NCBI GenBank assembly: GCA_030390025.1
Contig: CM059432.1
Location: forward strand, 55,802,001 to 55,862,000
From: Squalus acanthias
Lineage: Eukaryota
Length of the DNA stretch: 60,000 nt
Direction of reading: 5' to 3'
The notes beneath the pieces are model-generated. The model made no database searches. It was not told where the DNA came from and saw nothing but the letters and a program-made list of their open reading frames with translations. The position numbers and the translations under genes were made by a program. Shown one piece after another: positions 654 to 38,278 of this stretch. Numbering within the stretch: the first letter of the stretch is position 1; the number at the start of each line of letters is the position of its first letter.

Positions 654-3600
654 AGAAACATAGAAACATAGAAGATAGGAGCAGAAGTAGGCCATTCAGC
701 CCCTCGAGCCTGTTCTGCCATTTAATGAGATCATGGCTGATCATCCAAATTCAGTACCCTGTCCCTGCTTTCTCCCCATATCCCTTGATCCCTTTAGCCT
801 TAAGAAATATATCTAACTCCTTCTTGAATATATTTAATGAATTGGCCTCAACTGCCTTCTGTGGTAGAGAATTCCACAGGTTCACCACTCTCTGGGTGAA
901 GAAATTCCTCCTCATCTCAGTCCTAAATGGCTTACCCCTTATCCTTAGACTGTGACCCCTGGTTCTAGACTCCCCCGCCATCGGGAACATCCTTCCTGCA
1001 TCTAGTCTGTCTAGTCCTGTTAGAATTTTATAAGTTTCAATGAGATCCCCTCTCGTTCTTTGAAACTCTAGCGAATATAAGCCTAATCGACTCAATCTCT
1101 CCTCATACGTCATTCCTGCCATCCCAGGTATCAGTCTGGTGAATCTTCGCTGCACTCCCTCCATGGCAAGAACATCCTTCCTCAGATAAGGTGACCAAAA
1201 CTGCACACAATACTCAAGGTGTGGTCTCACCAAGGCCCTGTACAACTGCAGCAAGACATCCTTACTCCTGTACTCGAATCCTCTCGCTATGAAGGCCAAC
1301 ATACCATTTGCCTTCTGAACCGCCTGCTGCACCTACATGCTTACCTTCAGCGACTGGTGCACAAGGACACCTACTTCCCATTTTCCCAATCTATTGCCGT
1401 TCAGATAATAATCTGTCTTCCTGTTTTTGCCACCGAAGTGGATAACCTCGCATTTATCCACATTATACTGCATTTGCCATGCATCTGCCCAATCACCCAA
1501 CCTGTCCAAATCATACTGGAGTTTGTCTGCATCCTCCTCACAGCACACACGCCCACCCAGCTTTGTGTCGTCTGCAAACTTGGAGATATTACATCTAGTT
1601 CCCTCGTCTAGATCATTTATATATATTGTGAATAGCTGGGGTCCTAGCACCGATCCCTGCGGTACCCCACTAGTCACTGCCTGCCACTCGGAAAAAGACC
1701 CGTTTATTCCAACTCTTTGCTTCCTGTCTACCAACCAGTTCTCTATCCAAGACAGTACCTTACCCCCAATCCCGTGTGCTTTAACTTTGCACGCTAATCT
1801 CTTATGCGGGACCTTATCGAAAGCCTTCTGAAAGTCCAAATACACCACATCCACTGGTTCTCCCTTATCTATTCTACCAGTTACATCCTCAAAAAATTCC
1901 AGTAGATTAGTCAAGCATGATTTCCCTTTTGTAAATCCATGTTGACTTTGTCCGATCCTGTCACTGTTTTCCAAGTGCTCTGCTATTACATCTTTTATAA
2001 TGGACTCTAGCATTTTCCCCACTACCGATGTCAGACTTACCAGTCTATAATTCCCCATTTTCTCTCTACCACCTTTTTTAAATAGTGGGGTTACATTAGC
2101 TATCCTCCAATCCATGGGAACTGTTCCAGAGTCTATAGAATTCTGGAAGATGACCAGCAATGCATCTACTATTTCTAGGGCCACTTCCTTAAGTACCCTA
2201 GGATGTAGATTATCAGGCCCTGGGGATTTATCGGCCTTCAATCCCGTCAATTTCCCTAACACCATTTCCCTACAAATACTGATTTCATTCAATTCCTCCC
2301 TCTCATTTGACCTTATGTTCCCTGACATCTCTGGGAGGTTATTTGTGTCCTCCTTTGTGAAGACAGAACCAAAGTATGTATTTAATTGGTCTGCCATTTC
2401 TTTGTTCCCCATTATAATTTGCCCTGATTCTGACTGCAAGGGATCTACACTTGACTTCACCAATCTTTTTCTCTTCACATATCTATAGAAGCTTTTACAG
2501 TCAGTTTTTATGTTCCCTGCAAGCTTACTCTCATAATCTATTTCCCCCCCTCTTAATTAAACCCTTTGTCCTCCTTTGCTGAATCCTAAACTGCTCCCAA
2601 TCCTCAGGTTTGCTGCTTTTTCTGGCCAAATTATATGTCCTCTCCTTGGATCTTATGCTATCCCTAATTTCCCTTGTTAGCCACGGTTGAGTCACCTTTT
2701 TTGTTTTATTTTTATGCCAAACAGGGATGAACAAATTCTGTAGTTCATCCATGCGATCTTTAAATGTTTGCCATTGCCTATCCACCGTCAACCCTTTAAG
2801 CAATGTTCCCCAATCCATCCTAGCCAACTCGTGCCTCATACCATCGTAGTTTCCTTTATTTAAATTCAGGACTCTAGTCTCTGAGTCAACTACTTCACTC
2901 TCCATTTTAATGAAGAATTCTATCATATTATGATCGCTCCTCCCCAAGGGGCCTCGCACAACAAGATTGCTAATGAATCCTTTCTCATTACATAATACCC
3001 AGTCTAAGATGGCCTGATCTCCAGTTGGTTCCTCGACATATTGGTCCAGGAAACCATCCTGTATACACTCTAGGAATTCCTCCACCACAGTATTGTTACT
3101 AATTTGGTTAGCCCAATCTATATGTAGATTAAAGTCACCCATGATAACTGCTGTGCCCTTATTGCACGCGTCTCTAATTTCCCATTTAATGCCATCCCCA
3201 ACCTCAGCATTACTGTTTGGGGGTCTGTATACAACTCCCACTAACGTTTTCTGCCCCTTGGTATTTCTCAGCTCTGCCCATACAGATTCCACATCATCAG
3301 AGCTAATATCCTTCCTTACTATTGTGTTAATTTCCTCTTTAACCAGCAATGCTACCCTACCTCCTTTTCCTTTTTTCCTGTCCTTCCTGAATATTGAATA
3401 CCCCTGGATGTTGAAGTCCCAGACTTGGTCATCCTGGAGCCATGTCTCCGTAATCCCAATTATATCATATCCGTTTACATCTATTTGCGCAGTTAATTCA
3501 TCCACCTTATTACGAATGCTCCTCGCATTAAGACACAAAGGGGTAAAAATTGAGTCGCGCCCCATTTGGGGCGCTAACCTCGCCGGGGCGCTACTTTTAG

Positions 3601-4482
3601 CGCCCCGAAAAAATTAGCGGCCCCGCGCCGGAACTTCAGTGGTTGCGCCCCAAGAGGGAAGCGGGGCGCCACTGGAAGCACCCCGCATCCCTCTTGGGGC
3701 GCTGCGAGGGAATATCCTGGCGCTACGTGCCGCAGCGCCACGCGCTGCGGCACGTCGCGCCGCGGTATTGCAGGCCTTCCTCCCCTTCTTAAAGGGGAGG
3801 GACCCTGCGCAGCGCGAACTGGGGCCCAGCTGGGCCCCCAGGGATCGGGAGTGCCGGCAAAAGAGCCGGCACTCAAGAGAAGTGCCGGGCTCTTGGAGCG
3901 CAGCCGGCACTTCACGGTGGGGGGGCTTCACGGGGGCCGGGGACAGCAACGGGGGCAGGTGCTGGCAGGCGGCCAGCAACAAAAATGGCCGCCTGCCACC
4001 TCCCCTTTAAATATCGCCGCCCCGGCCGCACGTACGCCTCCCTGAACCCGTCGGACATAGCGTCTGGCGGTAAATCAGGGGGCGCGACTGAAGATCGCGG
4101 CTGGAGCGCGAGCGGGGTGCTGCGCACGGCGATGACGTCATCGCCGGCGGCGCAGCGCCACAGGGCGCTACCGGCTGGCGCCGCCGCTAACCTCCCGCTG
4201 AATTTTTCGGGAGGCGTGGGCGGCGCTGCGCCCGGGCGTTAGCTGCTTTACGCCCCATTAGCGCCCTCTTAAGGCGCTAACGGGAGGCGCAAGCAGCTGA
4301 ATTTTTCCCCCAAAGCCTTCAGGCTTGATTTTTTAACACTCTTAGTCCTTTTAGAATTATTATTTACTGTGGCCCTGTTTGATTTACACCCTTGATTTCT
4401 CTGCCTTCCACTTTTGCTTTTCTCCTTCCTGTCTTTTGTTTCTATCCTTGCTTTCCTTTCCTCTGTCTCCCTGCACAGGTTC
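654..4482 (-). mobile_element. CR1 LINE, ORF2 (APE endonuclease + RT) with frameshifts, 5'-truncated
   Basis: LNARSI, ITETWL, GDFN and SDH endonuclease motifs; GVPQGSVLGP and FADD RT motifs; short tandem-repeat 3' tail (TAGAAACA on + strand) at ~654-670. Confidence 0.95.
3540..4311. mobile_element. Non-autonomous Harbinger MITE (772 bp) inserted in CR1
   Basis: TIRs GGGGTAAAAATT / AATTTTTCCCCC and AAA TSD (3537-3539, 4312-4314). Ends closely match the 17949-24869 element. Very CpG-rich. Confidence 0.92.
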
Positions 4483-9562: not shown

Positions 9563-11403
9563 TTAAGTTAGGAGAGGAGAGGAAAATTGTGTGTAAGTCA
9601 AATTTAAAGTGATGGGGACATTTAAACGGGAATATCACAAGGAAAGGAACAAAAATTTAGAAAGCTTCTGGAGAGCATTAAAAGGCACCTCAGCCCAGCA
9701 GCATCTTTTGCCAAGGTGGCAGAACAGGATGAAAGGAAAGTGACTGGTAGGTGCAAGCATGAGACTGCAGACAAATGATGGTGCTGCTGCATGAGATGTT
9801 TGCGAGGACGGTTTTTATCTGTGCCACTGCACAGCACCATGCCATAGGTCAATACTGCAGCATGCCTGAAAGAAGTTGAAGCCAAGTTTCAGGTCACAGC
9901 AGAGCCTTGCAGTCCCTGCTCATGTGCAAGCTTTATGCTCCATGTTAGCTGTTGCCCTCCTTGCAGCAGTAGCAGAGGCAGAACTCAGCATCTCCCACTC
10001 TGCTGATTTTGTTTCCAGTGGGTTTGCTAAAGCCTGCAGAAATGGTTCGTGCATCTTGATAGGTGTGGCCAAAACAGGCAACATTGACTCTAGATTGCCT
10101 TGGTATGCTTTCTTTCAAACAACACCTTGTAAAGCATGACATACTATGATTTGGATGTTTCTGAAGAACCTTCCATCATAAGGGCTAGACAGGCATTCAC
10201 ATCTCATTGTGATGTCAACGGGGGTCTGTAGATGCAGCTGTCATTGGAAAGTTAAGCCTCCACCATTAACATCTACCAATATCAGATGTGTGCTTCTCCC
10301 TGCACATATTGGGGTGCAGGTGCAGGAGGGAGGCCACAGAGCACCTTGTGGGTAGCCTGATCTGCCAGGCATCCTTCTGCTGGTCCCTTTTTCCTCTGAA
10401 CAAGTCAACTTGAAGGATTACTGGTGGCAAGCCCTCTGGTGCAAATAAAGGGAGCTCAGGTCAAAATAAATAACAGCAACTGACAAAAAGGGCTAAAATT
10501 TCGGGGGCTTTACACCACCCGTTTCCGTCAAAATGTAGCGAAAAGAGGGTGGCCGCCGCTCTTTTGCCAGCTGGTGGCGGGTCCCGCTGCATCCGCCATT
10601 TACTGAAGCCCGGCAGCGCTGCCGCTAAGAGCAATGGCCCTGCAAATTTAAATTAGGGAGAGGTGACGCATGCCGACTTAACGTCACCTCGGCGAACTTC
10701 GACTTTAGTGCTGAGTTCAGCGCTGGGTCCTAAGCTTGCCATGAAAACCCAGTGTTCAGCAGACTCACAGAGGTGCTGTCAGCACCTCTTAAAGGGACAC
10801 ACACATCTTTCAGGTAAGTTTGCATTTAAGCTTTTGGACTGGATTTTTTTGATTTTATTGAAGTAGTAGCTTGTTGCAATACATGTTAAAAGTTTTTTAA
10901 GTGTGTAGGGTGTGCTGCTGGATGCTTGCAAGGCCTAGGATGGTAAAGGAAGGCCACTGAGAAGACAGAAAATGCTGTAAATACTCAGCAGGTCAGGCAA
11001 CATCCGTAGAGAGAGAAACAGAGTTCATGGCCGCGATTTCCCCAACCTCGGCAGGTTCATGACGGGCGATGTCGGTGGTGGGTCCTGGCCCCGCTGCTGG
11101 CTCCAGCCCGCTCTGCAGAATGATTTTATGATGATTGGGCTTGTTAAGCCCACCCAGCGCGTTTGCCGGCCAATTGAAGAAAGTGGGTCTGATGATGTCA
11201 TTTGATGACGTGTCATCAACCGGTTTCCTTAAAGGGACTATGCACAAATTGATTTTGACAGTTGTGCTGTCAGTGTTCTACAGCATTGAGGTGCTGCAAA
11301 CACTGACAAGCACTGCACAAAGGTACACGGCTGCACCCAGGCTTTCCCATGACTCCCTCCATATGCTTATGGAGGGAGTCACAGCATGCAGGGATGTTCT
11401 CTT

Positions 11404-14440: not shown

Positions 14441-17400
14441 TGGTGGGATTCTGAGGACCAAAGTGAGGTAGTATCAAGGGCACCGATGCTGATGTAATAG
14501 ATGGCAGTTGAACTTGAGATGGCAGAAGTGATCTGTTAGTGGTGAGAGAGGTTGTTCCATTGAGGTGACACTGGATAGAGAATTTTATCCAAACACTTGC
14601 AACCGGCATAAAGCTCAATCTGTCTTCCAAATGCAGTAAGCAACAACTTCTGAGCTTGGAAAGTGAACAGATGTGAGATGGGAGCTTTTACAGCACATTT
14701 GCAGCTGTCAAGTAATGAGATGATCCCATGGTCATTCAACTCCCGACCTCCTTACCTGATGTGATCCCCAGCAGCGTGGACCCTGTGGGCGACCTCGCAA
14801 AATGGTAAGGTGAGCTCAAAATACTTTTTAATAGGCTGTTAACAAGGTCATAATGACCTGATTTGCCTTCCCCGCCGCTGCGTGTCGGGTCTGTTCAGCC
14901 CTGACAGACCCGACATCTGGGAAAGTCGAGTGGAGAAGGGTTGACAGCGGGTTCCCGACCCGCTGTCAAAAATAAATTTTTCCCACCTGACCTGCCACCA
15001 AACGCGCCCGCTGACCCCCCGGAAAAATTCCTCCCCATGTCTCAGGTCGAGATGCTGCCTGACCTGCTGAGTATTTTATGCTGTCATTTCAGATTTACAA
15101 CAGAGGAAAGAGGAAGACGCAGAAGAGGTGATGCACACTGATTAATGCAGAAGTGGAAGATGCAGAAGAGGACGAAACAGAAGAGGAAGAAACAGAAGAG
15201 GAAGAAGCCGGAAAGGAGGAAGCAGAAGAGGAGGAAGCAGAAGTAAGAATGCAACCTAGAGAGCCCCTTTCTGGCCGGGACATCTGGGATTCAATCATCT
15301 GCCTGAGGTACCAGTGATCACAACCCCAATTCCCCTTTCAACATTTGTCCCACACCTTACCTTCCCTCTGTTACTGACCATCACAGCGTCCTCTTGGCCA
15401 TAATGCAGACATAAAAGTCATCACAAAGCAAACTTTCCAATCCAACTTTACACATCTATCCATCAAATATGACATCAAAAAATCAACTCATCACCTTTAA
15501 GCATTCTCTTAGTGACTGTCTTGTGTGTGCCTTTGCCTGTCCTCGTGCTCCTACATAGTGCTACCACTGTGGCTGAAGTATGACTGGTGGAAGGCTGCTG
15601 ACTTTCAATGGGGGACACTGCAAATGGCCTTGCTGCTCGACCTTGAGGAGCTGGTGGCTGGGAGTGTGAAATCGAGTGACTGTATTTATTCTTCTTCTTC
15701 ACTCTCCTCTTCCTCTTCTTGATTAACCACTGGCTGGTCAGGCTGCATTTCTTGGGTGTGTGAAATGAGGAAGGCACAAGGGTGGAGTTGTGGAGAAGGG
15801 AGGGCGGGAAAGCAAGAGGTCCATGCAAGAAGGAGGATAACATATTAGGATACAAGCATCTTGTTTCCTTTCAGCCCTGCCGCTGGCCAAAGGCTCAGTC
15901 ATGCCCCTGCCAAGAATGGCCAGCACCATCTCCTCCAAGGGGGTGAGGTGAGGCTAGGAATGGGAGGTGTGCCTCGTGATTGGTACAGATTGTTGGCAGG
16001 TGAGTGATGGGGGGGGGGGGAGGGGAGACGTGCATTGAGAAGTGTATGAGGCTAGTGATTCAGTTGGCAGGAGACGGCTTTTGAAGATGCATTCACTGAC
16101 CTTGACCAGTGATCTGAGGTCATGAAGCTTCTTTGGGCACTGAAGCCAGGTGATGCTGGGAGTGACGGCCTCGGTGATGTGGTCCCACATCGTTCTTTCT
16201 GGAGGGCCTCCTGGCCCCTGTGGGTAGAGGACCTCTCTTGCAGTGTTGACCCCCTGCACAAAGCTGGAGTGCTGCATGCGAGACCCTGCGTGCCCCTTCC
16301 CTGGCTTGCTGAGCCATTTGTGTTCGTGCTGAAGCATTTTTCCCATTTTTTGAGGTGTGGAAGTGAATTCAGCTTTAAGAAGGCATTGCCCTTTTAATGC
16401 ATCGCCCTTTTAATTTCCCACAATGCCTACTGAACTAATTGCCTCGCTTCAAGAGGCTGTTGGAAGATGGAACGCCGCTTTTGGACGGCAAATTCGCTAC
16501 CGATGCCTGCACTAACACCACCAGGAGGGCGTTACACAGCATAAATTTTTCTTTCCTACCACCGTGGCCATTTTCAGCGGCCGTTAACCCAAGGCTGCGG
16601 TGACACCGAAAACCTTCATGGCAGCCAGGAATTTCGAGGCCAAAGGCTGTGGGCCTTTAAAAGGCAATCCAACTGCAGGTATGCCTGAGACCTCCATCCC
16701 ACAAATTTTTCATGGGCATGCTGAAGGCATCCAGCATTTCCATGGGTTGGAAAATGGTGTGTCTCTCTCCCCCGCCTCCTTTATTTTCTATGGTAATGAT
16801 GCTTCCACCTGCTCAGATTGGGAGATTCAGAGATGTACTCCAGGCCCAACTGGAAGATAGACTAAAATCAGTGGGAATTAAACAAAACTGATTTCCACCA
16901 TATTTCCTGACCTCTACTGTCCTGTTAGCATACCATATTGGGGCACTAAGATGACGACAATCAATCTTTATGTTTGCTTTCAAAATTCAACATTTATTTT
17001 TTAACTCAAATTAGGAGGAGGAAAGACATATTGTCTGCTTTGCTCTCTCTCTCACACTGGTGTCAGTAGTCAGAATGTTTACATTTTCTTACCACTAACA
17101 GAACTCAGCTAATAATCAGGTGATAATTAAAAGCTTTCTGTTTACTTTCAAAATTCAGCTCTTTTTTTGAATGTACTGAAGGATATGGAAACTCACACTG
17201 TGTTTCTCTTTCTCAATTTCTCTTTCAAGTTCATGCAGTATAATCAAACACCAAATAAAGCCACAAGTGTCTATTCACTTCAGTCTATCGTGTTTTTCTC
17301 TTTTACTTTCATACATAGACAGCCTCTGTTTAAAGATACACTCAAGATACATTTTACCTGAATTAAACTTCTGAAATTTGTACTGTAGCTTTTCTTCAAG

Positions 17401-18269
17401 TACTTCTGAAAACAACTAAATAGAGACTGAAAGAAACATTCTGTCATTTTGCTAACTTAATGCTACTGATGCATCTCAGGAAATTGCACACAGCACATGC
17501 TCAGAAAGCAGCACTTGCCTTCAGCTAAGAGAATCACTGCGCTGGATTTTGGGAGAGGCTGAAGACTTCAATTAAAAATGTTAATGAAGGAATTAAAAGA
17601 AACAAAAGCAATTCAATTGATAAATGTAACCATGTTGTGAAATACATGTATTTTTATTTTGTTTAAAACTTTATTGTGGACATTAGAAATTTGAGTTACT
17701 GAGGAAAAAAGGCAGCCGATTTTTTTTTTCAAAAATCTTTTTTCAGTTGGTTCATCAAAAACCGTGACAATGAAAGTTGACATATGGTTTTCTCATAATA
17801 AAATGTTGACAAAGGGTTTTTCCACGTTGACATAAGGATTTCCATCATAAAAGTGTTACATGGCAAATAATATTAATGTGTACAGGAAGCACACCATATG
17901 CGAGGTTTTTTAAGAATATAAAGATAGATAAATAATTGGAAAGTTTTGGGGGGAAAAATTAGGTCGCGCCCCGTTTGGGGCGCAAATTATCACCACTGAC
18001 TGGAAACTTCACTTTTACCGTCCCGGGAGGTGAGTGGAGCGCTAAATCAGGCGCTGCACACCTGTCTTAAGGCGCAAAGGCCGAGCAGTGAGGCGCTAAC
18101 TCAGCGCGCGAGCGCAGCGCAGGTGCTGCCAGTTAGCGAGGGAACACAGACACACTGGCGCCGGCCAGTTCTTAAAGGGAGGGGCCAACTTGCTCCCCAG
18201 CCACACCCTGCTCATTGCAGCCTTGAATCTCGGCCTGGAGAGACCTGTGAATCCATTTTGCAGCCAAGG

Positions 18270-20090
18270 ATGGAGAGGGTGAGAGAACGAGCTCAGCGCT
18301 TCACCGAGCGGGCCTTGGATGCTCTGGTTGGCGCGGTGGAACGCAGAAGATCTATACTCTTCCCTGAGAGTGGCAGGAGGCCTTTGCCACGCGAGTACAG
18401 AAGAGTGTGGAGGGAGGTGGCGCAGAGCATCTCCTCCAGGAGCATGGTGCCCAGGACCCATGTTCAATGCCGCAAAAAGTTCAACGACCTCACTCGGGTC
18501 GTCAGGGTGAGTGGCTTTTTCTCAATACCTCTCTATCCCTCCATCTCAACCTCACTCTATGACCAGAGGGTCTTAAAACCCCAATGCACAACACTCATCC
18601 AACACCTATGGCCCTTTCATGAAACACACACACACATTCCATACTTTGCATACAGTAAGGGCTATACACCTATGGGAGGCACATCAGGCAAGACCATGGC
18701 TGTATACAGTAAGGGCTATTCACCTATGGGAGGCACATCAGGCAAGACCATGGCTGTATTATTTATTCAGATGCTGTCCTTTTTCTTGCAGGCCAAGCTG
18801 GCGCATAATAGGAGACAGCAGCAACGGACAGGTGGAGGGCGGCCTCAGCTGCAACCCCTCAGCGATCTTGAGGAGCGCGTCCACAGGATTGTGGCAAGCC
18901 GGGTGATCGGTCCCGTCGCCACTGGAGACGCCGACCCCGTTCTGGACAGCAATGGTAAGGTCATCACCTTTTTGTCCTCTGTCCTTCCACTTGTCCCTCA
19001 CAACACCAGCCTTTGACACTTTCAATCCAACTTGCTAACTCGCTGCACTTATTCCTCCCTTACTGCCACCCTGTCCTCACGCTAAAGCCACTCTTGTACC
19101 TCCCTGCTTTCAGATGGTGATTCACCAGCTGAGGAGACGGGCCCTGAAGCTGCCAGTGGGAGTGAAGCTGCAGCCGAGGAGGAAGAGGAAGCCGGAGCAT
19201 CAGTGCCACCCTCTCCCGAGGAAGCCCATGCCCACACTGGGAACACGCCTTCCCTGGAGGGGAGCAGGGGGGAAGGGTCTGATGAGGGTGAAGCTCCAGG
19301 ACCCAGCGGGCTGCAGCAACGCCATGGGGGTAGGGAAGAACGGGGGCCTTCTCCCCAGAGGGAGAGTATGCCAGCGACTCCTACTGCAATGGACGCAGAG
19401 GAGGAGCGGCTGATCGCAGAAATGAACACCCAGGCGGTGGGCATGCACACTGAGCTCATGGGTGCAGTGGGAAGGGTGCCCGAATGCATTGAGTCACTGG
19501 CAAGGAGTGTGGAGCACTTCGCTGTAGCACAGGCGGATGCCACACTAAAGCTTAGTGCTGCAATTCAGTCACTGACTGCCGTGATCCCATCTCTGACTGC
19601 TCACATGCAGACTCAGATTGAGGCCACGCGAGCACTGATTGCTGCCAACCTCGATGGTTCGTTCACATGTCCCCGGGGCTCTCACCGCGCCGCAGCAGGC
19701 CAGCAATCTGTGCTCCAGCAGATTGCTCCGGATGCTGAAGTGCTGCCCCGTGGGAGTGCCAGTGTGTCGGTCGAGCAGGGAGTTGCTGTCCTCTCTCACG
19801 ATGACAGCATTCCTGCTGCCAACACTGTCACTTCTCCACTGCACTTGCCACCGCCTGTAGGACAGACTGCTGCCGCCCATGCAGAATTGGTGCAGTCTGC
19901 AGCCGGGCCCTCCAGGCCCAGAACTGGTCGAGGCCGTCCTTCAGGGGCATCTGCAGTGTCAGGGTCTGACAATCAGCAGCCTTCCACCAGCCTTGCTGCA
20001 GCCACTGAGGTCCCATTACGGAGGAGCAGTAGGGTTAGAAGGGGGGAAGTGCGCAAGGGAAGGAGATCACCCTCGAAGGGCAAAAAGTAG
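18270..20090 (+). CDS. Harbinger Myb/SANT-like protein, 3 exons (18270-18506, 18792-18954, 19114-20090), 458 aa
   Basis: GT-AG introns of phase 0 and 1 give an open 1377-nt frame. Motifs RAQRFTERALDALV, VWREVA, QCRKKFNDL and RTGGG, then an acidic linker, a helical region and a basic C-terminus. Confidence 0.88.
18651..18758. repeat. 54-bp tandem duplication in intron 1 of the Myb gene
   Basis: TACAGTAAGGGCTAT(A/T)CACCTATGGGAGGCACATCAGGCAAGACCATGGCTGTA twice, one mismatch. Confidence 0.95.
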
Positions 20091-20210
20091 GAGGTGTGAC
20101 AAAATGCTGGTCATTTTTTTATTAAAGGCCGAGGTTCGTGGTCCAACTTTTGTCCAGTGTTTTGGACATTATCTCCAGGTTGTGAGAACCAGTTATGTTA
20201 ATGACTGTTA

Positions 20211-23000
20211 GAACATAAGAACATAAGAAATAGGAGCAGGAGTAGGCCAATCGGCCCCTCGAGCCTGCTCCGCCATTCAATAAGATCATGGCTGATCTGA
20301 TCCTAACCGCCAATCTACTATCTATCACAGAACCATCTCCTGCATCTAACAGAATTGCACACACGAAATAGGAGCAGAATCAGGCTACACAGTCCCTGGG
20401 CCCGCTCCACTACCCACAGGGCCATGACCGATCCGAACCTAGACTCATGTCCAAATTCCTGCCCGCTCCCCGTAACCCTTAATGCCCTTTACTTCTAGGA
20501 AACTGTCTATTTCTGTTTTAAATTTAATTAATGTTGTAGCTTCTACAGCTTTTTGTGGCAGCATATTCCATGGACCTACCACCCTCTGAGTGAAGTAGTT
20601 CCTCCTCATCTCAGTTTTGAAAGAGCAGCCCCTTATTCTAAGACTATGTCCCCTAGTTCTCGTCTCACCCGTCATCGGGAACATCCTCCCCGCATCCACC
20701 CGATCCAACCCCTTCACAATCTTATATGTTTCAATAAGATCGCCTCTCATTCTTCTGAACTCCAATGAGTAGAGTCCCAATCTACCCAACCTCTCCTCAT
20801 ATGACCACCCCCTCATCCCCGGGATTAACCGAGTGAACCTTTTTTGCACTGCCTCGAGAGCAAGGATGTCTTTCCTTAAGTAAGGACACCAAAACTGTAT
20901 GCAGTATTCTAGGTGCGGTCTCACCAATACCTTGTACAACTGAAGCAATACCTCCCTATTTTTATATTCTATCCCCCTAGCAATGAAAGCCAACATTCCA
21001 TTTGCCTTCTTAATCACTTGCTGCACCTGCATACTAACCTTTTGAGTTTCGTGCACCAGGACCCCCAGATCCCTTTGCACTTCAGTACTCTCCAGTTTCT
21101 TGCCATTAAGATAATAAATTGCTCTAGGATTTTTCCTGCCAAAGTGCATCACCTCACACTTTCCAGTGTTGTATTCCATCTGCCAAATCTCTGCCCACTT
21201 ACTTAGCCTGTCTATGTCCCCTTGCAGGTTTTTTATGTCCTCTTCATTCACTACTTTCCCTCCCATCTTTGTATCATCTGCAAATTTTGATATGTTACAC
21301 TTGGTCCCTTCCTCCAAATCGTTAATATAGATTGTGAAGAGCTGGGGACCCAGCACTGACCCCTGTGGAACACCACTAGTTACTGATTGCCAGTCTGAGA
21401 ATGAACCATTTATCCCAACTCTTTGCTTTCTGTTAGATAGCCAATCCTCTATCCATGCCAGAATATTACCCCCAATCCCGTGATTTTTTACCTTAAGCAA
21501 TAATCTTTTGTGTGGCACCTTGTCAAATGCCTTTTGGAAGTCTAAATACACTACGTCCACTGGTTCCCCTTTATCCACTCTATATGTTACTTCCTCAAAG
21601 AACTCCAGCAAATTTGTCAAACATGACTTCCCCTTCGTAAAACCATGCTGACTTTGTCCTATTAAATTATGATTATCCAAATGTCCTGTTACTGTATCCT
21701 TAATAATGGACTCCAAAATTTTACCTACCACAGATGTTAGGCTAACCGGTCTATAGTTACCAGCCTTCTGTCTACTGCCCTTTTTAAATAAGGGTGTTAC
21801 ATTAGCAGTTTTCCAGTCTGCCGGGACCTTAGCGGAATCCAGGGAGTTTTGAAAAATTATTACCAATGCATCTACAATCCCTACCGCCACTTCCTTCAAG
21901 ATTCTAGGATGTAAGCCATCAGGTCCAGGTGATTTATCCGCCTTGAGTCCCATTATTTTACCGAGTACCACTTCCTTAGTGATTTTGATCGTGTTTAGCT
22001 CCTCTCCCCCTATAGCCCCCTGTTTGTCCAGTGTTGGGATATTCTTAGTGTTCTCTACTGTAAAGACTGATACAAAATATTCATTCAGTGTTTTTGCCAT
22101 CTCCATATTTCCCACCATTAATTTCCCGGTCTCATCCTCTAAGGGACCAACATTTACTTTAGCCACCCTTTTTCTTTTTATATAACTATAAAAACTCTTA
22201 CTATCTGTTTTTATATTTTTTGCTAATTTACTTTCATAATCTATCTTCCCTTTCTTAATCAATCTTTTTGTTATTTTTTGCTGCCTTTTAAAGTTTTCCC
22301 AATCCTCTGTCCTCCCACTAGATTTCGCTACCTTATATGCCCTTGTTTTTAGTCGAATACTATCCTTAATTTCTTTACTTAGCCACGGATGACTGTCCTT
22401 TCTTTTACACCCTTTTCTTTTCAGTGGAATATATTTTTTTTGGAAGTTGTAAAATAACTCCTTGAATGTACACCACTGATCATGTGTCGTCTTACCCTTT
22501 AATCTATTTTCCCAATCCACTCTACTCAATTCCGCTCGCATACCTTCATAGTCTCCTTTATTCAAGCTTAGCACGCTTGTTTGAGATCCAACCTTCTCAC
22601 CCTCTAATTGAATATGGAATTCAACCATGTTATGGTCACTCATTCCAAGGGGATCCTTTACTAGGACATTTTTAATTAATCCTGTCTCGTTACACAGGAC
22701 CAGATCTAAGGTTGCTTGCCCCCTGGTCGGTTCAGTTACATACTGCTCAAGAAACCCATCCCTAATACACTCAATGAACTCATCCTCAAGGCAGCCCTGC
22801 CCCATTTGATTTGTCCAATTAATATGATAGTTAAAATCCCCCATAATTATAGATGTTCCCTTATTACATGCCTCAACTATTTCCTGATTGATACTCCGTC
22901 CAATAGAGTTGCAACTGTTCGGAGGCCTATAGACTACGCCCACTAATGTTTTTTTCCCCTTATTATTCCTTATCTCCACCCAAACTGTTTCATTATCATG
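20211..23000 (-). mobile_element. Young CR1 LINE with open ORF2, 5'-truncated inside the APE domain
   Basis: ORF 20445-23111 has no stops. The CR1 part begins near ETVWVEIRN (~22995). FADD motif and repeat tail (AACATAAG on + strand) at 20211. Confidence 0.95.
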
Positions 23001-23195
23001 ATTTTTTGTGTTTATTTCTATGAGTTTGTCATGAGGAAATGACACACACAGAGTTTGTAAAATAAATAAGTTTTTGTATTCAAAATATACATGTTTGGTG
23101 TTTGGAATCATTGGTGCCTTGGCCGGCTTAGGGGTTGCGTGCTGGGTTCATTGATGTTGTTAGCAATGGCAGAAGCCATTTCCACAGCAGGGGCC

Positions 23196-24425
23196 CTAGA
23201 AGCGGCTTGCTATCAGCCGTTGACGGACGGCCCTTGCAGTTTCACCATTGTGGGCCGCCCTCCCGCCTTGGTGCTGCTGATGATCATCCTCCTCGTCCTC
23301 TTCCTCTTCTTCCTCCTCCTCCTCTGGTGGTGCTCCAAGGCCTGGTGGCATTGGCTGGGTCCTGACGATTGCCATGTTATGCAACATGCAGCACACAACT
23401 ACGAAGTTGGATACTCGCTCAGGCGAGTACTGCAGGGCTCCTCCAGAATGGTCGAGACAGCGGAACCGTTGCTTCAGCACGCCGATTGTGCGCTCAATGA
23501 TGTTCCTGGTAGCTTGATGGCTCTCGTTGTACCGCAGCTCAGCAGGGGTGTTGGGCGTACGGAGCGGTGTCATCAGCCAGGTGCTCAATGGATACTCCTT
23601 GTCCCCGAGAAGCCAACCAACTGGCTGATGTGGTGCCTCGAAAAGTTCTGCCACAGTAGTCTGGCGCAGGATGAAAGCATCGTGGCAGCTGCCAGGATAG
23701 TGGGCATTGACAGCGAGTATCAGCTGTCTGTGGTCACAGACCAACTGAACATTCAAGGAATGGAACCCCTTTCTGTTCCGGAAATCCTCGGCATTCTCAT
23801 GTGGAGCACGCAAAGCCACATGCGTGCAGTCAATGGCGCCCTGCACCATGGGGAAGCCCGCTATCCTCGCAAAGCCCAGAGCGCGGTCACGCTGCTTGTC
23901 TGGGGTCATGGGGAAAGAGATGAACTCTCGTCTCCTTTTAAAGAGGGCATTTGTGACCTGCCGGATGCAGCAATGCACCACGAACTGGGAGATATTGGCG
24001 AGGTCCCCAGCAGCAGCTTGAAATGAGCCAGTAGCATAGAAGTTGAGAGCCACTGTGACCTTCACTGCCACCGACAGAGACGTCCTGGACCTCAGTTGAG
24101 GCTGCAGATCTGGCTGCAGCAGGTGGCAGAGCTCAGTGACCACCTCCTTGCTGAATCGCAGCCTTCGCAAACACAGCTCCTCAGACATATGAATGTAGGA
24201 GAGCTGTTCACGATATACCCTGGGAGGGTAAGCTCTCCTGTACATACGCCTGTTGGCCCTCCTCCGTCTGGCCATCATTGCCACTCTCTCTCTGCGTCTC
24301 TGTGTCCTCCGATTCAGCTGGAGCAGGACGACGCCCCCATTCAGTGCAGCCCCCATAGTCTCTTTGCAAGCAAAGTTATGAAGGACAGCAACCAAAGTAC
24401 CAGCGAAGTTAGGATCAGTAGGCAA
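23196..24425 (-). CDS. Harbinger (HARBI1-like) DDE transposase; the actual start may be the ATG at 24356
   Basis: ALNFYATGSFQ, GAIDCTHV, NRKGFHSLNVQLVCD, YPGSCHDA, LGDKEYP, RNIIERTIGVLKQRFRCL, CCMLHN, acidic tail. No stops. Confidence 0.93.
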   Translation of the reverse strand: MPTDPNFAGTLVAVLHNFACKETMGAALNGGVVLLQLNRRTQRRRERVAMMARRRRANRRMYRRAYPPRVYREQLSYIHMSEELCLRRLRFSKEVVTELCHLLQPDLQPQLRSRTSLSVAVKVTVALNFYATGSFQAAAGDLANISQFVVHCCIRQVTNALFKRRREFISFPMTPDKQRDRALGFARIAGFPMVQGAIDCTHVALRAPHENAEDFRNRKGFHSLNVQLVCDHRQLILAVNAHYPGSCHDAFILRQTTVAELFEAPHQPVGWLLGDKEYPLSTWLMTPLRTPNTPAELRYNESHQATRNIIERTIGVLKQRFRCLDHSGGALQYSPERVSNFVVVCCMLHNMAIVRTQPMPPGLGAPPEEEEEEEEEDEEDDHQQHQGGRAAHNGETARAVRQRLIASRF

Positions 24426-25599
24426 AACTACCTCACAAAGCGTTGACTCAATGCAGAAGTCTCTCTTTCTCTCTCTCCGAATCTCTCTCTCTCTCTCTCA
24501 GAACGAGTGGTGCAAAAATGTCAACCACAGAAAAAGACAGGAAGAGGCCCCCTTTAAATAGTGCCCCCCCCAGCCCCACAACGATTGATAGCGTTCCAGT
24601 CTTCCGGTCGTTGGATGCGCCAGGCGGTAAGGCAGGGGGCGCCACTCAATTTCCACTCCGGGGCGCCACAAGGGCGTTGCACCATGGAATGACGTCACAA
24701 TCTGCGCGCGCAGGTGGTCGCAGCGGTAAAGTTTAGCACCGCCGCACAATGTCTAGTTAAGTTCCCGAGCGGCGCAAACATCGCTGCGCCCGGGCGCTAG
24801 CGGCTTTGCGCCCCATTAGTGCCCTCTTAAGGCGCTAACGGGAGGCGCAACCAACTGAATTTTTCCCCCTTGGATGTTTTATGTGGCAATTTTTGTTTGT
24901 TTATCAAAATTTGTGTTTATTAAAGACTGTCTATTTAACATCCTCCTCTGATCTGTCTGCAGACCAATTTGTATCCTCAGCTATCCTCCCCAGCACTCAA
25001 TAATAGTGCACTAAAGGGCAAACCTTCTGCTTCTGCAGTCCAACCACATTCTGGGAGCACATATTAGGAAATTGTGCAACCCAGCCAATAACTTTAAGAA
25101 GAAAAGTGTATCCTTAAATGTTTTAGGGCTGGAATATAATGATAGGAAAGTGGTGGAAGGATACTTGAGAGTGCAAAAGATGCTGCAGGTGGGTCAGGAA
25201 GAAGGTTAATGTGCAGGAAAGGGGTAGGAGGATGGTGCCTGATTGTCTAAAAGAGGACAAAGTAAGTTTGGATCTCATTCTCCTGGGCCCTTCCTCCCTC
25301 ACAAGGCTGCTAGACTGAGTTCCCCTCTAATCATGCCAACACTGAAACTCACACCCAAGTCCTGCTGGATCCCATGACCGTCCTCCTCAGACTTCCCCCA
25401 ACTGCTTTGAGAACCTGGGTCCCCTTCTGAGTGCTCACAAAACTCTTAGGCTACATTCCCAGTACGTCTAGAACCTGAGAGCTCCCTCCTCATTTTTCCT
25501 AGATTCTAGGACCCATCTCCCAGTGATCCCAGATCCCTGGACCTACCCGCCAATGTTCCCAGAATCTCCTTCTCTAGTATTCCCGAAACTCCTATTTCA

Positions 25600-29599: not shown

Positions 29600-31830
29600 A
29601 GCAGTAATCTCCTAGTTAGTCTTGGTTCTAGGTTTATCTTTGAAGTTTTCACTAAGATTCTGTCAATGTTTCAACGTAGATTCAACCACGTTCTGCTCAG
29701 TGGAAACAGCACACTGTTTCAAAGAATCACTTGTCAAAGGTGTGAAGAATTTCGCTGCGCAGCATGCTTTAACTGTTATTTGTGCTCATGAAATGCTTTG
29801 TAACCCTGTCTCAGAAACAATGCTTCTTTACTCTGTTATTCAGCACCTTTTTGATTCATCTCAGCTCTAATATCCAGGCCTGATTCCATTCTTAGAAGTC
29901 CAAAGGATCAGAAGAATTTCAGCCTAGCTCAAAAATCTGACATTGATGCTTGCAATTATACTGCTGAGTCACTTCAAGCTGTCCTGACCCAAGGAAAGGG
30001 TTATGATATGAATATGAAAGAAAAGAGAAGTTGGGATCCGATCAGGAGTTCAGAAATTAGTGTTATTCTGCTGACAAGCAAAATGACTGTGCTGTCCTTC
30101 ATCTGACCAACATTGTTGAGTAACTCATTCCTGTCCTAGTTAACTTGTATAATAATCAGAGAATCACTATAACTGCCTTCTTTGGAGATATTTTAAATCA
30201 GTCACTGATGCTGGAATTGTTGCTCGCAGGTACTCTTGTGGGAAGCTTGCTTCGATGTTTGCTTGATGCTTCTCCTATTGTTCAAAGGCATGCCAGAACA
30301 GATTTGGGTATTGCTTCAATTGGAACTTCGCAAAGGATAGAAAAATGCTTCACGAAGTTGCTGTCTGCAAGGATTTCTGCAACAGAAAAGCAATATAAAT
30401 CCAGCAATCTCATAGCAGTTGAGGCAATTTCAAGTATATCCAAGATCCTAGATCACCTGCAAGAGAATTCTGCAAATTCCATTCTTATCGATCTAGCGCT
30501 TGCAATTGAGCCTTTCTTTAAAATGAACGTGACAAAATGAGAGCTGCAGCATTTAATGTACTTGGGAAGCTAAACAGATTTGGAAATATGCAACAGAATC
30601 CTTTATTTCTGGAACATGTAATGTACTTTGATCAGCTTGCTTATTGCAGCTCAATGACAAGAGCCATGGTAGGGTTCCCCTTGTCCTCACCTTTCACCCC
30701 ACCAGCCTCCACATTCAATGGATCATCCTCCGCCATTTCCGCCACCTCCAACGTGATCCCACCACCAAACACATCTTCCCCTCCCCTCCCCTTCCAGCAT
30801 TCCGAAGGGACCGCTCCCTCCGCGACACCCGGGTCCGCTCCTCAATCACCCCCAACACCCCTTCCCCTTCCCACGGCACCTTCCCGTGCATGCGCAGGAG
30901 ATGCAACACCTGCCCTTTTACCTCCTCCCTTCCCACTGTCCAGAGCCCCAAACACTCCTTCCAGGTGAAACAGCGATTTACTTGTACTTCTTACAATTTA
31001 ATATACTGTATTTGCTGCTCACGATGCGGCCTTCTTTACATTGGGGAGACCAAACACAGATTGGGTGACCGCTTTGCAGAACACCTCCGTTCAGTCCGTA
31101 TGGGTGACCCTGAGCTTCCGGTCGCCTGTCACTTTAATTCTCCGCTCCACTCCCACTCTCACCTCTCTGTCCTCGGCCTCTTACACTGTTCCAATGAAGT
31201 TCAACATAAGCTCGAGGAACAGCACCTCATCTTTCGATTAGGTACTTTACAACCTTCTGGACTCAACATTGAGTTCAACAATTTCAGACCATAACCTCTG
31301 CTCCTATTTTTTCACATGGCAGCTGTTGATGATTCTGCCATTCCCATCTACACCACTTCTAGACTTATCTTTTGTTTCTTTACTAGTCCCATTACCATCT
31401 CCTTTTGCTTTCTACTATCATACCTTTTGTCATTTAATCACTCTTGCCTTCCACCCTATCACAGACCTTCCCTTTTGTTCTTTTCTCCCCGCCCCCCTTT
31501 CACTGCCCCTGCACTTGCTTAAAATTTGTCACATCTCTAACTTTTTCCAGTTCTGACGAAAGGTCATCGACCTTTAACAATAACTCTGTTTCTCTCTCCA
31601 CAGATGCTGCCTGACTTGCAGAGTATTTCCAGCATTTTCTATTTTTATTATGCAAATTGCTGCTGATTAGTCCAACAATGACATCAGAAAGTATATTTCA
31701 GATGTTTCAAGAGTTTTCATTGGAGGAGACTACAGTAGATTATGAGAAATATTTGAGCAACATTTCCAAGCTCATTAGCAAAGACTTGCTCAATAGGATC
31801 ATCTCCTACATTACAAGTTGTTTGCCTTGT
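29600..31830 (+). pseudogene. MROH-family (maestro HEAT-like repeat, MROH1-like) pseudogene, intronless here and split by Penelope
   Basis: LYNNQRITITAFFGDILN, LLDASPIV, IAVEAISSISKIL, LALAIEPFF, MRAAAFNVLGKL and, after Penelope, SESIFQMFQEF...YEKYLSNISKLI follow the order of MROH1 as I recall it. Stops and frameshifts present. Confidence 0.72.
30660..31650 (+). mobile_element. Penelope-like element, GIY-YIG endonuclease portion plus terminal repeat
   Basis: RVPLVLTFHP, CNTC, NLIYCICCSRCGLLYIGETK...RFAEH and GTLQPSGLN, followed by a repeat ending GATGCTGCCTGAC...TTTCCAGCATTTTC. Confidence 0.92.
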
Positions 31831-36900: not shown

Positions 36901-38278
36901 TTTTTCTTACCCGGACCCTATTTGTTAGTGCACTCTTTTGTTTGTACGCTCTGTCCTTTCCTGACACAATCTGGTTATCCTTACCCCAATCACTTTCCTG
37001 TACTGCTTCCTTGTCTTTTTTCTTTAGCATTCTAAATTTCTCTCCACCGGGACCCTCCCCCCCCTAATTTAGTTTAAAGCCCTATCTACCTCCCTAGTTA
37101 TTCGATTTGCTAGAACTCTGGTCCCAGCATGGGTGCCAGTGCCCCACGAATCAAAACCCACTTCTCCCACACCAATCTTTGAGCCACGCATTCATCTCCC
37201 TGATCCTATTGACCCTATGCCAATTTGCTTGTGGCTCAGGTAATAATCCAGAGATTACCTTTGTGGTTCTGCTTTTTAATTTAGTCCCTAGCTGCTCAAA
37301 CTCTCTCAGCAGAACCTCTTTCTTTGTCCTACCTATGTCGTTGGTACCTACGTGGACCACGACAACTGGATCCTCCCCCTCCCACTCCAAGTTCTTCTCC
37401 AGCCCGGAGGAGATGTTCTTTACCCTGGCACCGGGTAGGCAACACAGACTTCGGGACTCATGCTCTTGGCTGCAGAGAACAGTGTCTATCCCCCTAACTA
37501 TGCTGTCCCCTACCACTACCACATTTCTTTTTGCTCCCCTTTCTTGAATGGCTCCCTGTACTACGGTGCTGTGGTCAGTTTGCTCATCCTCCCTGCAGTC
37601 CCTGCTCTCGTCCACACAGAGAGTAAGAACCTCGTACCTATTGGACAAGAGCAAGTGCTGAGGCTCCTCCACCAATACCCCCTGGTTCCCCATACCTGCC
37701 TCGCTTGTAGTCACACCCACCTGTCCCTGACTACGGACCAAATTTGAATTAATTAATCTAAGGGGTGTGACTGCCTCCTGGAACACAGCGTCCAGGTAAC
37801 TCTCCCCCTCCCTGACGTGTCGCAGTGTTTGAAGCTCGGACTCCAGCTCATCAACACGGAGCCAAAGTTCCTCGAGCAACCAACACTGACTGCAAATGTG
37901 GTTGCCTTGGACCTCAATGGTGTCCACCAGCTCCCACATGTTGCAGCAGTAACACATTGCCTGCCCTGCCATCTTTAATGTATTTAATTAATTAAGTGTT
38001 TAAGTTTTGAACGTTTAGTTTTTAATCCCGGCTCTTAATTTAAACCAATGCCCAAGAAAACAGAGAAATACTGACCAACCAATCACTTCCCTGCTTTCCT
38101 GTGATGTCACTCCTTTTTTTGTTGTTCTTTTAGTCGCCTGTTCTCTCACAGGTCAGTCCACTCCCGCTGCTGCTCCCAATAGCTCGGTCTGGGCTTCGAG
38201 CCTCGGGCTTTATTTCCTCGCTCCTCGTTCGCCTGCTCCCTCACAGGTCGGTCTGCTCCCGCTGCTGCTCCCAATAGC
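33925..38278 (-). mobile_element. Near full-length CR1 LINE (5' UTR, ORF1, ORF2, tail)
   Basis: ORF2 pieces at 34080-37030, ORF1 at 37151-37972, tail at 33925, ~40-bp direct repeat at the 5' end. Confidence 0.93.
37151..37972 (-). CDS. CR1 ORF1: Cys-rich N-terminus, coiled coil and SGNH/GDSL esterase-like domain (C-terminally deleted)
   Basis: CYCCNMW...HICSQC; LRVDELESELQTL; VVVVGDSIVRG; CLPGA; VVVHVGTNDIG. Confidence 0.85.
   Translation of the reverse strand: MAGQAMCYCCNMWELVDTIEVQGNHICSQCWLLEELWLRVDELESELQTLRHVREGESYLDAVFQEAVTPLRLINSNLVRSQGQVGVTTSEAGMGNQGVLVEEPQHLLLSNRYEVLTLCVDESRDCREDEQTDHSTVVQGAIQERGAKRNVVVVGDSIVRGIDTVLCSQEHESRSLCCLPGARVKNISSGLEKNLEWEGEDPVVVVHVGTNDIGRTKKEVLLREFEQLGTKLKSRTTKVISGLLPEPQANWHRVNRIREMNAWLKDWCGRSGF

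Follow-up and report, generated by a model that had tools for sequence, protein, structure and literature searches.

HARBI1 and NAIF1, a domesticated vertebrate pair, are single host genes without terminal inverted repeats (TIRs), homologous to the DDE_Tnp_4 and Myb/SANT-like protein families of Harbinger transposons. As a mobile element, such a two-protein system has been described for zebrafish Harbinger3_DR (Sinzelle et al. 2008), which had to be reconstructed and in which, according to the excerpted accounts, nuclear co-localisation depends on the partner protein, which also binds a short motif in the subterminal region (PMC3016246, PMC9710019), the target being given as AAACACCWGGTCTTT (PMC3016246). 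Harbinger-Snek of sea kraits is, in the portion of the report available, a naturally intact family of horizontal transfer origin that makes up 8-12% of the genome, with fully intact copies that number in the hundreds (269 in L. colubrina); RNA reads cover both of its genes, and it has numerous non-autonomous and solo-ORF derivatives (PMC8437027). Within the PHIS superfamily, the extracts of Han et al. (2015) assign to NuwaII a TNA duplication that is preceded by a conserved C and followed by a conserved G, and to PIF/Harbinger in the strict sense a TWA duplication (PMC4482050). For cartilaginous fishes, a 2022 survey, by its abstracted text, recorded no Harbinger in the elephant shark, its one cartilaginous-fish genome, and called for other species (PMC9179366), and shark genome papers, in the parts available, give the superfamily in repeat tables only (PMC12498223, PMC8455134).

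The window, a 60,000-nucleotide stretch of the 3.7-Gb genome of the shark Squalus acanthias, very probably contains at positions 17949..24869 a member of a young and very abundant family of two-gene PIF/Harbinger DNA transposons, full in length and later invaded by a LINE. Membership in PIF/Harbinger (PHIS) is indicated by the DDE_Tnp_4 transposase with its catalytic triad, the Myb/SANT-like second gene, and the short TIRs with a 3-bp target site duplication (TSD). The element, if it moves at all, would do so by DDE-transposase cut-and-paste, the Myb-like partner likely guiding the transposase via repeated GGCGCWAA motifs near both ends; by analogy with Harbinger3_DR, this partner may bind both the subterminal motifs and the transposase and carry the latter into the nucleus. 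The likeness to the zebrafish element, compared by description only, extends to a DDE transposase with a Myb-like partner, to duplications of 3 bp and to a palindromic target preference spanning 15 bp, but the shark family has abundant natural open-frame copies. Like Harbinger-Snek it is a naturally intact, very abundant vertebrate family, though in a cartilaginous fish instead of sea kraits.

The left TIR, GGGGGAAAAATT (17949..17960, forward strand), was recovered in a TIR pair scan and is identical to the terminus of 34 sister copies, and the right TIR, AATTTTTCCCCC (24858..24869, reverse strand), is its exact complement; the triplet TTG flanks the element on both sides (17946..17948 and 24870..24872). 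These 12-bp TIRs are perfect, but the pair alone is not above chance, because the inverted-repeat scan of 7.4 kb returned two further perfect 12-nt pairs; the element ends are validated because identical termini bound every other family copy examined. Perfect 3-bp TSDs accompany 30 of the 35 best-matching copies and 25 of the 36 genome-order copies for which both ends were located. In all four sequencing runs searched, the flanks of one copy, L031, are joined in an empty-site contig form that skips 4,165 bases, equal to the 4,162-bp element plus 3. A search for an empty-site allele of the window insertion, a check that an earlier note on this DNA had proposed, found none; the left flank consists of an old repeat whose relatives are only 68-82% alike.

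Insertion sites across the family follow a 15-bp palindromic preference, approximately A-R-A-N-W-C / W-W-D / G-W-N-T-Y-T, which differs from the target described for Harbinger3_DR in the text available. The duplication is preceded by C in 26/35 copies (position -1) and followed by G in 25/35 (position +1), resembling NuwaII as excerpted, but NuwaII duplications are TNA, whereas those of the shark family are mostly ATA, TAT, TTG and AAA. Nor do they follow the strict PIF/Harbinger pattern of TWA, since TTA or TAA occurs in 4 of the 30 and 6 of the 25 perfect duplications, and the window copy has TTG. Some older repeats have been hit repeatedly at the same site, their flanks being 85-86% alike and the elements within them 98.7-98.8% alike.

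The transposase gene (23196..24356, reverse strand) has no intron and encodes 386 aa, being part of an open frame of 408 codons plus stop (23196-24422) whose first ATG lies at 24356; the corresponding M1 is an invariant column in 28 aligned homologues. The product matches Pfam DDE_Tnp_4 (E=5e-40), and its triad columns are conserved among 120 homologues, with D at D176 in 99, D at D252 in 91 and E at E288 in 75. Relative to the family majority it carries A126V, E191D and G254E. Upstream, the right subterminal region and transposase 5' leader (24357..24857, reverse strand) contain a (CT)n stretch and GGCGCWAA motifs. The best transposase relatives are proteins of Pristiophorus japonicus annotated as 'putative nuclease HARBI1' (P0001, 67% identity; P0002, 61% over full length), and those of the Myb partner reach about 37%. 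Because transposase identity does not exceed 67% and Myb identity is about 37%, the family is not represented in the shark and ray protein sets, although their gene models include both protein families with the same exon joints (Myb-partner models P0122 and P0125). One shark model, P0009, fuses a Myb N-terminus to a transposase.

The Myb partner gene lies on the forward strand, convergent to the transposase, and its three exons splice into an open frame of 458 aa. Exon 1 (18270..18506, 79 codons) encodes the Myb/SANT-like DNA-binding domain (Myb_DNA-bind_5, E=2e-10), exon 2 (18792..18954) is 163 nt long, and exon 3 (19114..20090, stop at 20088-20090) encodes a segment that is acidic, one that is likely helical, and a basic tail in which a GRGRP motif occurs. 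A profile search of exon 3 gave no matching Pfam family; at E<=0.001 it has only 13 relatives, of which the ones traced by name come from sharks. Both introns have GT..AG borders. Intron 2 (18955..19113, 159 nt) is skipped exactly in contigs of runs X1, X3 and X5, which lack these 159 nt and no others at the predicted exon 2/3 junction, and the same segment is kept in all 75 genomic copies examined (0/75 without it); the four sequencing runs are, however, only presumed to be RNA, and the lack of signal from unique flanks in them would fit low-coverage DNA as well. Intron 1 (18507..18791) contains a 54-bp tandem repeat at 18650-18759 and falls, among the copies, into length classes of 230, 284, 338 and more nucleotides; its length in the family majority, 284 nt, is not a multiple of 3. 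The joints listed include no spliced contig for it, and unspliced contigs cross both of its borders; shark homologues P0009, P0122, P0125 and P0129 align without gaps over the exon 1/2 joint, as do P0122, P0125 and P0129 over the exon 2/3 joint. Only these homologues argue for intron 1, which is best regarded as predicted. The structural claims of the earlier note are thereby largely borne out, namely perfect TIRs with a 3-bp TSD (the termini recurring across the family), an open transposase of about 409 codons with D-D-E residues, and a convergent three-exon Myb/SANT gene of 458 aa; of the two splice junctions that it had predicted, the run contigs contain the second.

The earlier suggestion to determine copy number and divergence leads to a family of considerable size. 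The 26-nt stretch ending at the right TIR has 10,300 exact places, right-end 26-mers total 18,102 genome-wide (10,300 + 7,802), and a transposase 26-mer has 1,978 exact genome matches, against 0 for reversed-pattern controls. A first look gave 3,080 family candidates, and all 40 scored matches were at 98-100% over 1,770 bp. Thousands of sisters, 98-99% identical, occupy other sites with their own 3-bp duplications, and the divergence of copies from the family majority is about 0.3-1.8%. Among the 35 best-matching copies (window copy included), the transposase is open in 34, Myb in 24 and both in 24, with 21 having both frames open and all four splice dinucleotides; among 40 genome-order copies, the transposase is open in 21, Myb in 25 and both in 10. 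The 'intact' state is thus common in this family, and its reconstruction, for which the window copy had been put forward as a candidate, is unnecessary because natural open-frame copies are plentiful.

These figures indicate that the family likely moved recently, and the earlier description of it as recently active holds as far as youth, high copy number and the many sisters with both frames open are concerned, but nothing shows present-day transposition. Copies decay near-neutrally: singleton synonymous and non-synonymous changes number 61/128 in Myb and 46/104 in the transposase, and variant density is 0.16 in coding against 0.178 in non-coding sequence. No purifying selection is visible among shared variants (synonymous/non-synonymous 6/39 in Myb, 6/16 in the transposase), so that these provide no argument that the open frames are maintained. 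The family may therefore be extinct, its copies being fossils of one past burst whose frames are open only for want of time or mutation, a reading to which we assign slightly less than an even chance. It accords with the near-neutral substitutions and the lack of a synonymous excess in shared variants, with the absence of any genome-order copy closer than 0.5% to the majority, barring a segmental duplicate pair, and with the 30 of 40 genome-order copies in which at least one frame is broken; on the other hand, about a quarter of transposase-bearing copies retain both frames, and the spliced form is present in contigs of the runs presumed to be RNA. Continued transposition of the family in this shark at the present day, with spliced partner mRNA, natural copies usable without reconstruction and some 500 copies with both frames open (an extrapolation, 10/40 x 1,978), is a tentative proposition and on balance doubtful.

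Whatever the state of the family, the window copy is an ordinary member with lesions of its own. It differs from the family majority at 28/4,127 sites (0.68%), 22 of the 28 being C>T or G>A, mostly CpG-type decay. Its left subterminal region and Myb 5' leader (17961..18269, forward strand) contain GGCGCWAA-type repeat motifs and a GCGCCCC/GGGGCGC hairpin, and counts on the canonical copy L031 place GGCGCTAA five times and GGCGCAAA four times in the element ends, with 0 internally. Between 17984 and 17985, a 36-bp deletion private to the window copy (1/35 copies) has removed an inverted pair of the subterminal repeat motif. Within the LLGDKGY motif, two residues beyond the catalytic D252, G254E occupies a column that is G in 79/120 homologues; the change is common to the window copy and one other among the 35 copies.

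A nested LINE (20210..23001, reverse strand) is inserted in a T7 tract between the 3' ends of the two genes and retains a reverse transcriptase (RVT_1, E=4e-31) and the C-terminal part of an apurinic-type endonuclease in one frame. It is 5'-truncated, as the endonuclease matched only from profile position 144 of 225. Two TTCTTATG-like octamers lie at its 3' end, an octamer-repeat tail being typical of CR1. Its family gave 40/40 scored matches at about 100% identity, and the insert is absent from 29/29 sister loci and was seen in none of a set of 40 copies. It adjoins the transposase AATAAA at the converging 3' ends and touches neither coding frame, in agreement with the earlier claim of an insert between the stop codons that harms neither ORF.

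It is thus most improbable that the window copy itself is a master element, autonomous and competent to transpose. Its two open frames, catalytic triad and perfect 12-bp TIRs and TSD would suit such a role, but the private deletion, G254E, the 2.8-kb LINE beside the transposase AATAAA, and site differences that are mostly CpG-type decay all speak against it. 'Apparently intact', as the locus had been called, is true of the reading frames only, because of the private subterminal deletion, to which G254E and the nested LINE are added. The copy would be expected to serve poorly as a substrate and to be doubtful as a source of enzyme, because a 36-bp segment with two motifs has been lost, G254E is present, and the inserted LINE makes it 2.8 kb longer.

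Two further explanations have next to no probability. Domestication of both genes from a Harbinger into host genes, as with HARBI1 and NAIF1, might be read from shark relatives annotated 'putative nuclease HARBI1' and 'myb-related transcription factor, partner of profilin-like', but at the window locus it is refuted by copy number and TIR/TSD structure, this being a mobile-element copy among thousands of near-identical ones at unrelated sites, which decay neutrally and have broken frames in many cases. Equally negligible is the proposal that the near-identical copies are assembly or segmental duplications instead of transpositions, which fits the pair L082/L083, 32 kb apart and identical including flanks, but is refuted as a general explanation by the unrelated flanks and separate 3-bp duplications of other copies, even same-site pairs having flanks only 85-86% alike.

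Elsewhere in the window, a non-coding, Tourist-like MITE of 772 bp (3540..4311, forward strand) has the ends GGGGTAAAAATT...AATTTTTCCCCC and an AAA/AAA duplication. The earlier note had named it as the MITE to be tried with the two proteins of the element. Resemblance does not extend beyond some 40 bp of the 5' end and, at 93%, 88 bp of the 3' end; a deletion derivative of 17949-24869 is rejected in favour of a relative that shares ends only, which the Harbinger family may nonetheless have mobilised.

Knowledge of how Harbingers work is unchanged by these findings, intact and abundant vertebrate Harbingers having already been described in sea kraits, as far as the excerpted report goes (PMC8437027). 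What the locus reveals is an elasmobranch-type genome in which family ends number at least 18,000 and about 2,000 copies, diverged by less than 2%, carry the transposase; many of these have both frames open, and the target preference of the family is clearly palindromic. Tests of the two-protein Harbinger mechanism could reasonably draw their natural proteins from the family, though not from the window copy, and its insertions could serve as markers of recent differences among sharks. Should the family still be transposing, a cartilaginous fish would turn out to host a two-component Harbinger that is naturally active and site-selective.

Copy number and divergence were checked in the source genome, where the element at window 17949-24869, earlier taken for a member of a recently active family, has thousands of near-identical copies and not only diverged ones. 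The host assembly amounts to 3.71 Gb, the window lying on contig C8. A search with the element's right 1,770 bp returned 3,080 candidates at first look; 40 of them were scored, and all 40 were 98-100% identical over the full length. Exact 26-nt searches of the genome found 10,300 places for a stretch of the right end, 7,802 for a one-base variant of it and 1,978 for a stretch of the transposase gene, with reversed-pattern controls returning 0 in each of the three. Two samples of copies were compared, one consisting of the window copy and its 34 best matches having both flanks, the other of 40 genome-order copies from contig C1; copies L065-L069, whose left flank is missing, were excluded from all counts. 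Distances from the sample majority are 0.3-1.0% among the 35 copies and 0.5-1.8%, with one at 4.8%, among the 40 genome-order copies, the median pairwise distance among the latter being 1.7%. The canonical element measures about 4,162 bp, and its length classes reflect a 54-bp tandem repeat within intron 1. Most transposase-bearing genome-order copies have the right end AATTTTTACCCC, an imperfect terminal inverted repeat (TIR) matching at 11/12 positions, while the window copy's perfect right end, AATTTTTCCCCC, is the commoner genome-wide (10,300 vs 7,802 exact places), an excess presumably owed to non-autonomous derivatives.

The ends of the element were located by an inverted-repeat scan, in which GGGGGAAAAATT opens the element and its exact complement closes it. 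A 12-nt inverted pair is unremarkable alone, because two further perfect 12-nt pairs occur in the same 7.4 kb; the family copies validate these termini, and the perfect TIRs of the earlier note stand with them. The 3-bp target-site duplication also holds, TTG abutting both ends as read from the sequence, and perfect duplications are found in 30 of the 35 copies, four others having one base differing and one having two. Among the genome-order places both ends were found in 36/40, of which 25 have perfect duplications, 7 one mismatch and 4 two or three mismatches.

The transposase is encoded on the minus strand as 386 aa from the first ATG at 24356 in an uninterrupted frame, the open stretch 23196-24422 corresponding to the 409 codons counted previously. 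It matches the Pfam family DDE_Tnp_4 (E=5e-40), its M1 is invariant when the protein is aligned with 27 homologues, and its proposed D-D-E motifs fall on conserved catalytic columns as D176, D252 and E288. The Myb/SANT partner, on the plus strand and convergent with the transposase, has exons at 18270-18506, 18792-18954 and 19114-20090, which are separated by GT..AG introns and join into an open 458-aa frame as had been predicted. Exon 1 encodes a Myb_DNA-bind_5 domain (Pfam, E=2e-10), and the translated tail of the partner contains GRGRP and a lysine/arginine run, which may correspond to an AT-hook and a nuclear-import signal. Immediately inside the left TIR lies a perfect, GC-rich, 9-bp hairpin (GCGCCCC...GGGGCGC, window 17964-17985) that is also found in the MITE at 3540-4311. 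Sequence search among solved structures gave no match for the transposase, and a complex prediction for the transposase and the partner's exon-3 product, in which the supplied alignments went unused and the partner fold was uncertain, gave no answer (score 0.00) and counts neither for nor against an interaction.

The Myb half of the element is partly present in 18 sequencing runs. At least half of its 31-mers occur in 14 runs, from seven organisms, and the family is thus near-identical in several organisms, which may reflect shared ancestry with slow change, or transfer between species. Four runs were examined, two from organism A and two from organism B, their type ('RNA?') being a guess. Contigs of runs X1, X3 and X5 (depths 211, 171 and 73) exactly omit the 159 nt of intron 2 (18955-19113, GT..AG); run X6 has no such contig, and X1 also has an unspliced contig at depth 409. 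Spliced RNA is the likelier source of the intron 2-less contigs, because intron 2 is present in 75/75 genomic copies and unique parts of the window, the flanks 9628-10441 and 16547-17767, have almost no coverage in these four data sets. That the runs are low-coverage DNA, which also fits the near-zero cover of these flanks, is less likely than spliced RNA. One of the two predicted junctions, exon 2/3, is therefore matched exactly in X1, X3 and X5; the other, exon 1/2, is not among the joints listed for the four runs, whose contigs drop rare forms and, where unspliced, span the borders of intron 1. Support for the predicted intron 1 is comparative and comes from shark protein models: P0009 (46% identity, residues 5-113), P0122, P0125 and P0129, all computational gene models of Pristiophorus japonicus, align ungapped across the exon 1/2 joint, and the last three do so across the exon 2/3 joint as well.

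In the 35-copy sample, which is biased towards likeness to the window copy, 34 copies have an open transposase frame and 24 an open spliced Myb frame; both are open in 24 copies, and 21/35 combine two open frames with canonical dinucleotides at all four splice positions. Of the 40 genome-order copies, 21 have an open transposase and 25 an open Myb gene (24 of these with canonical splice sites), and 10 keep both open. Scaled to the 1,978 places of the transposase-gene stretch, this last count suggests about 500 coding-open copies, extrapolated from one contig. Singleton variants number 61 synonymous and 128 non-synonymous in the Myb gene and 46 and 104 in the transposase, where the site ratios are about 1 to 2.9 and 1 to 3.2, respectively. 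Variant density is 0.16 in coding and 0.178 in non-coding columns, and changes of CpG to TpG or CpA make up 188 of the 696 variants. Across the aligned copies this variation looks like neutral decay, by which the copies are to be read as those of a transposon, domesticated host genes being ruled out.

The 30 perfect duplications of the 35-copy sample comprise ATA (6), TTG (5), TAT (5), AAA (4) and TTA (3), with AAG, CAA, CTT, CAT, TAA, CTG and AGA seen once each; they are A/T-rich and rarely TWA. The insertion site is palindromic: of the 35 copies, 28 have A at -6, 32 have A at -4, 26 have C at -1, 25 have G at +1 and 26 have T at +4. The flanking C and G around the duplication are reminiscent of NuwaII (PMC4482050, in the part available). 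Independent insertions repeat at one nucleotide of older-repeat copies: the flanks of copies L087 and L091 are 86% alike and their elements 98.7%, the values for L101 and L105 are 85% and 98.8%, and L038, L044 and L051 occupy a single site in a repeat, one lying in the opposite orientation. L082 and L083 are a plain segmental duplicate pair. Many other Harbinger copies sit in (CATAGAGT)n-like LINE tails. At L031, a canonical copy, contigs of four public runs bridge both flanks and omit 4,165 bases, that is, the 4,162-bp element plus 3. This empty-site form is probably paralogous because that flank is a LINE repeat, and it nonetheless fixes the boundaries of the element. No spanning empty site or haplotig was found for the window insertion, whose left flank has 68-82% relatives only.

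Segment 20210-23001 of the window copy is a private later insertion, since 29/29 sister loci first compared run straight from window 20209 to about 23000. Its insertion site is a run of seven T, and a comparable insert is absent from 40 further copies examined. The insert has coding sequence for a reverse transcriptase and, of the endonuclease, retains just the C-terminal part (Pfam profile positions 144-225 of 225). It is therefore a minus-strand LINE truncated at its 5' end, with a frame that is open for 888 codons and extends into Harbinger sequence. Each of the 40 scored genomic matches, from 1,696 first-look candidates, is about 100% identical along 1,201 bp. The LINE family is thus extremely young and was retrotransposing very recently, perhaps even now. 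The LINE sits exactly where both 3' ends meet, adjoining the AATAAA of the transposase, and lies outside both coding frames, so that, as originally noted, neither ORF is damaged.

Against the majority, the window copy differs at 28/4,127 sites (0.68%), 22 of the 28 being C>T or G>A. No other copy of the 35 shares its loss of 36 bp after 17984, and the lost segment carries TTAGCGCC/GGCGCTAA as an inverted motif pair; counted on L031, GGCGCTAA occurs five times and GGCGCAAA four times in the element ends, and neither occurs internally. The window copy's transposase carries A126V, E191D and G254E. The E191D site is polymorphic within the family (14/35), and G254E is common to the window copy and one other of the 35. 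Residue 254 lies in LLGDKGY, two past D252, and is G in 79/120 homologues, E falling outside the five commonest states. The Myb protein carries V54I, L297H and T309I. Reading through intron 1 (ORF 18270-19016) is open in the window copy only, owing to a private 1-nt insertion at 18759; it was rejected as a coding form, as the majority 284-nt intron would shift the frame, and a word-index search with the exon1-intron1-exon2 read-through found no protein match at E<=0.001. The 36-bp loss and the transposase changes therefore make this a coding-open copy that is predicted to be defective both in cis and in its enzyme, to which the nested LINE adds. The earlier note's 'intact' is thus right as to the two open frames and fails on the private deletion, G254E and the LINE between the genes: the window copy is real, well delimited and coding-open yet blemished.

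Elsewhere in the window, a LINE reverse transcriptase frame (34080-35543, minus strand) lies downstream of a weak GDSL-lipase/esterase match (37151-37984, minus strand; E=7e-7, under the Pfam cut-off); some CR1-like LINEs carry an esterase-bearing ORF1. A weak GIY-YIG endonuclease match (30632-31291, plus strand; E=9e-4, under cut-off) could be the remnant of a Penelope-like element.

For the transposase, the best relatives are models from sharks and rays that carry the name 'putative nuclease HARBI1', at up to 67% identity. A search of 1.84 billion representatives with the partner region encoded by exon 3 found only 13 relatives at E<=0.001; those looked up by name are all from sharks, and two belong to gene models that also include TRIM/PML-type or Ig domains. 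Three database proteins of other sharks, all public gene models, join Harbinger parts to one another or to other domains. In P0009 the transposase comes straight after the Myb N-terminus; in P0121 the partner's C-terminal region is preceded by RING, B-box and PML coiled-coil domains; and P0131 has the partner region and then Ig domains. These fusions could be chimaeric annotations or real captures.

The element has the structure of PIF/Harbinger (PHIS) transposons and lacks the TWA duplication that marks the narrowly defined PIF/Harbinger group. Zebrafish Harbinger3_DR requires its Myb-like protein for nuclear co-localisation; this protein recognises a short motif in the subterminal region and interacts with the transposase, and a 15-bp palindromic target is favoured (PMC9710019 and PMC3016246, from the portions available). 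Beyond the anatomy, target duplication and preference, and family dynamics observed here, the Myb partner of the shark element would, by analogy, bind a short subterminal motif, interact with the transposase and serve nuclear co-localisation. As far as the accessible text of each source goes, a 2022 survey recorded no Harbinger in the elephant shark and called for more cartilaginous fish species (PMC9179366), shark genome papers mention the superfamily in repeat summaries only (PMC12498223, PMC8455134), and no description of the family was found in these papers, in PMC4482050 or in the titles and abstracts of the other papers retrieved on shark, elasmobranch and catshark Harbingers and on Harbinger3_DR. 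Abundant, naturally intact vertebrate Harbingers are already published, and Harbinger-Snek, whose fully intact copies number 269 in one sea krait and whose two genes are both covered by RNA reads (PMC8437027, in the sections available), provides a precedent for the Harbinger family of this shark, which is young and very abundant.
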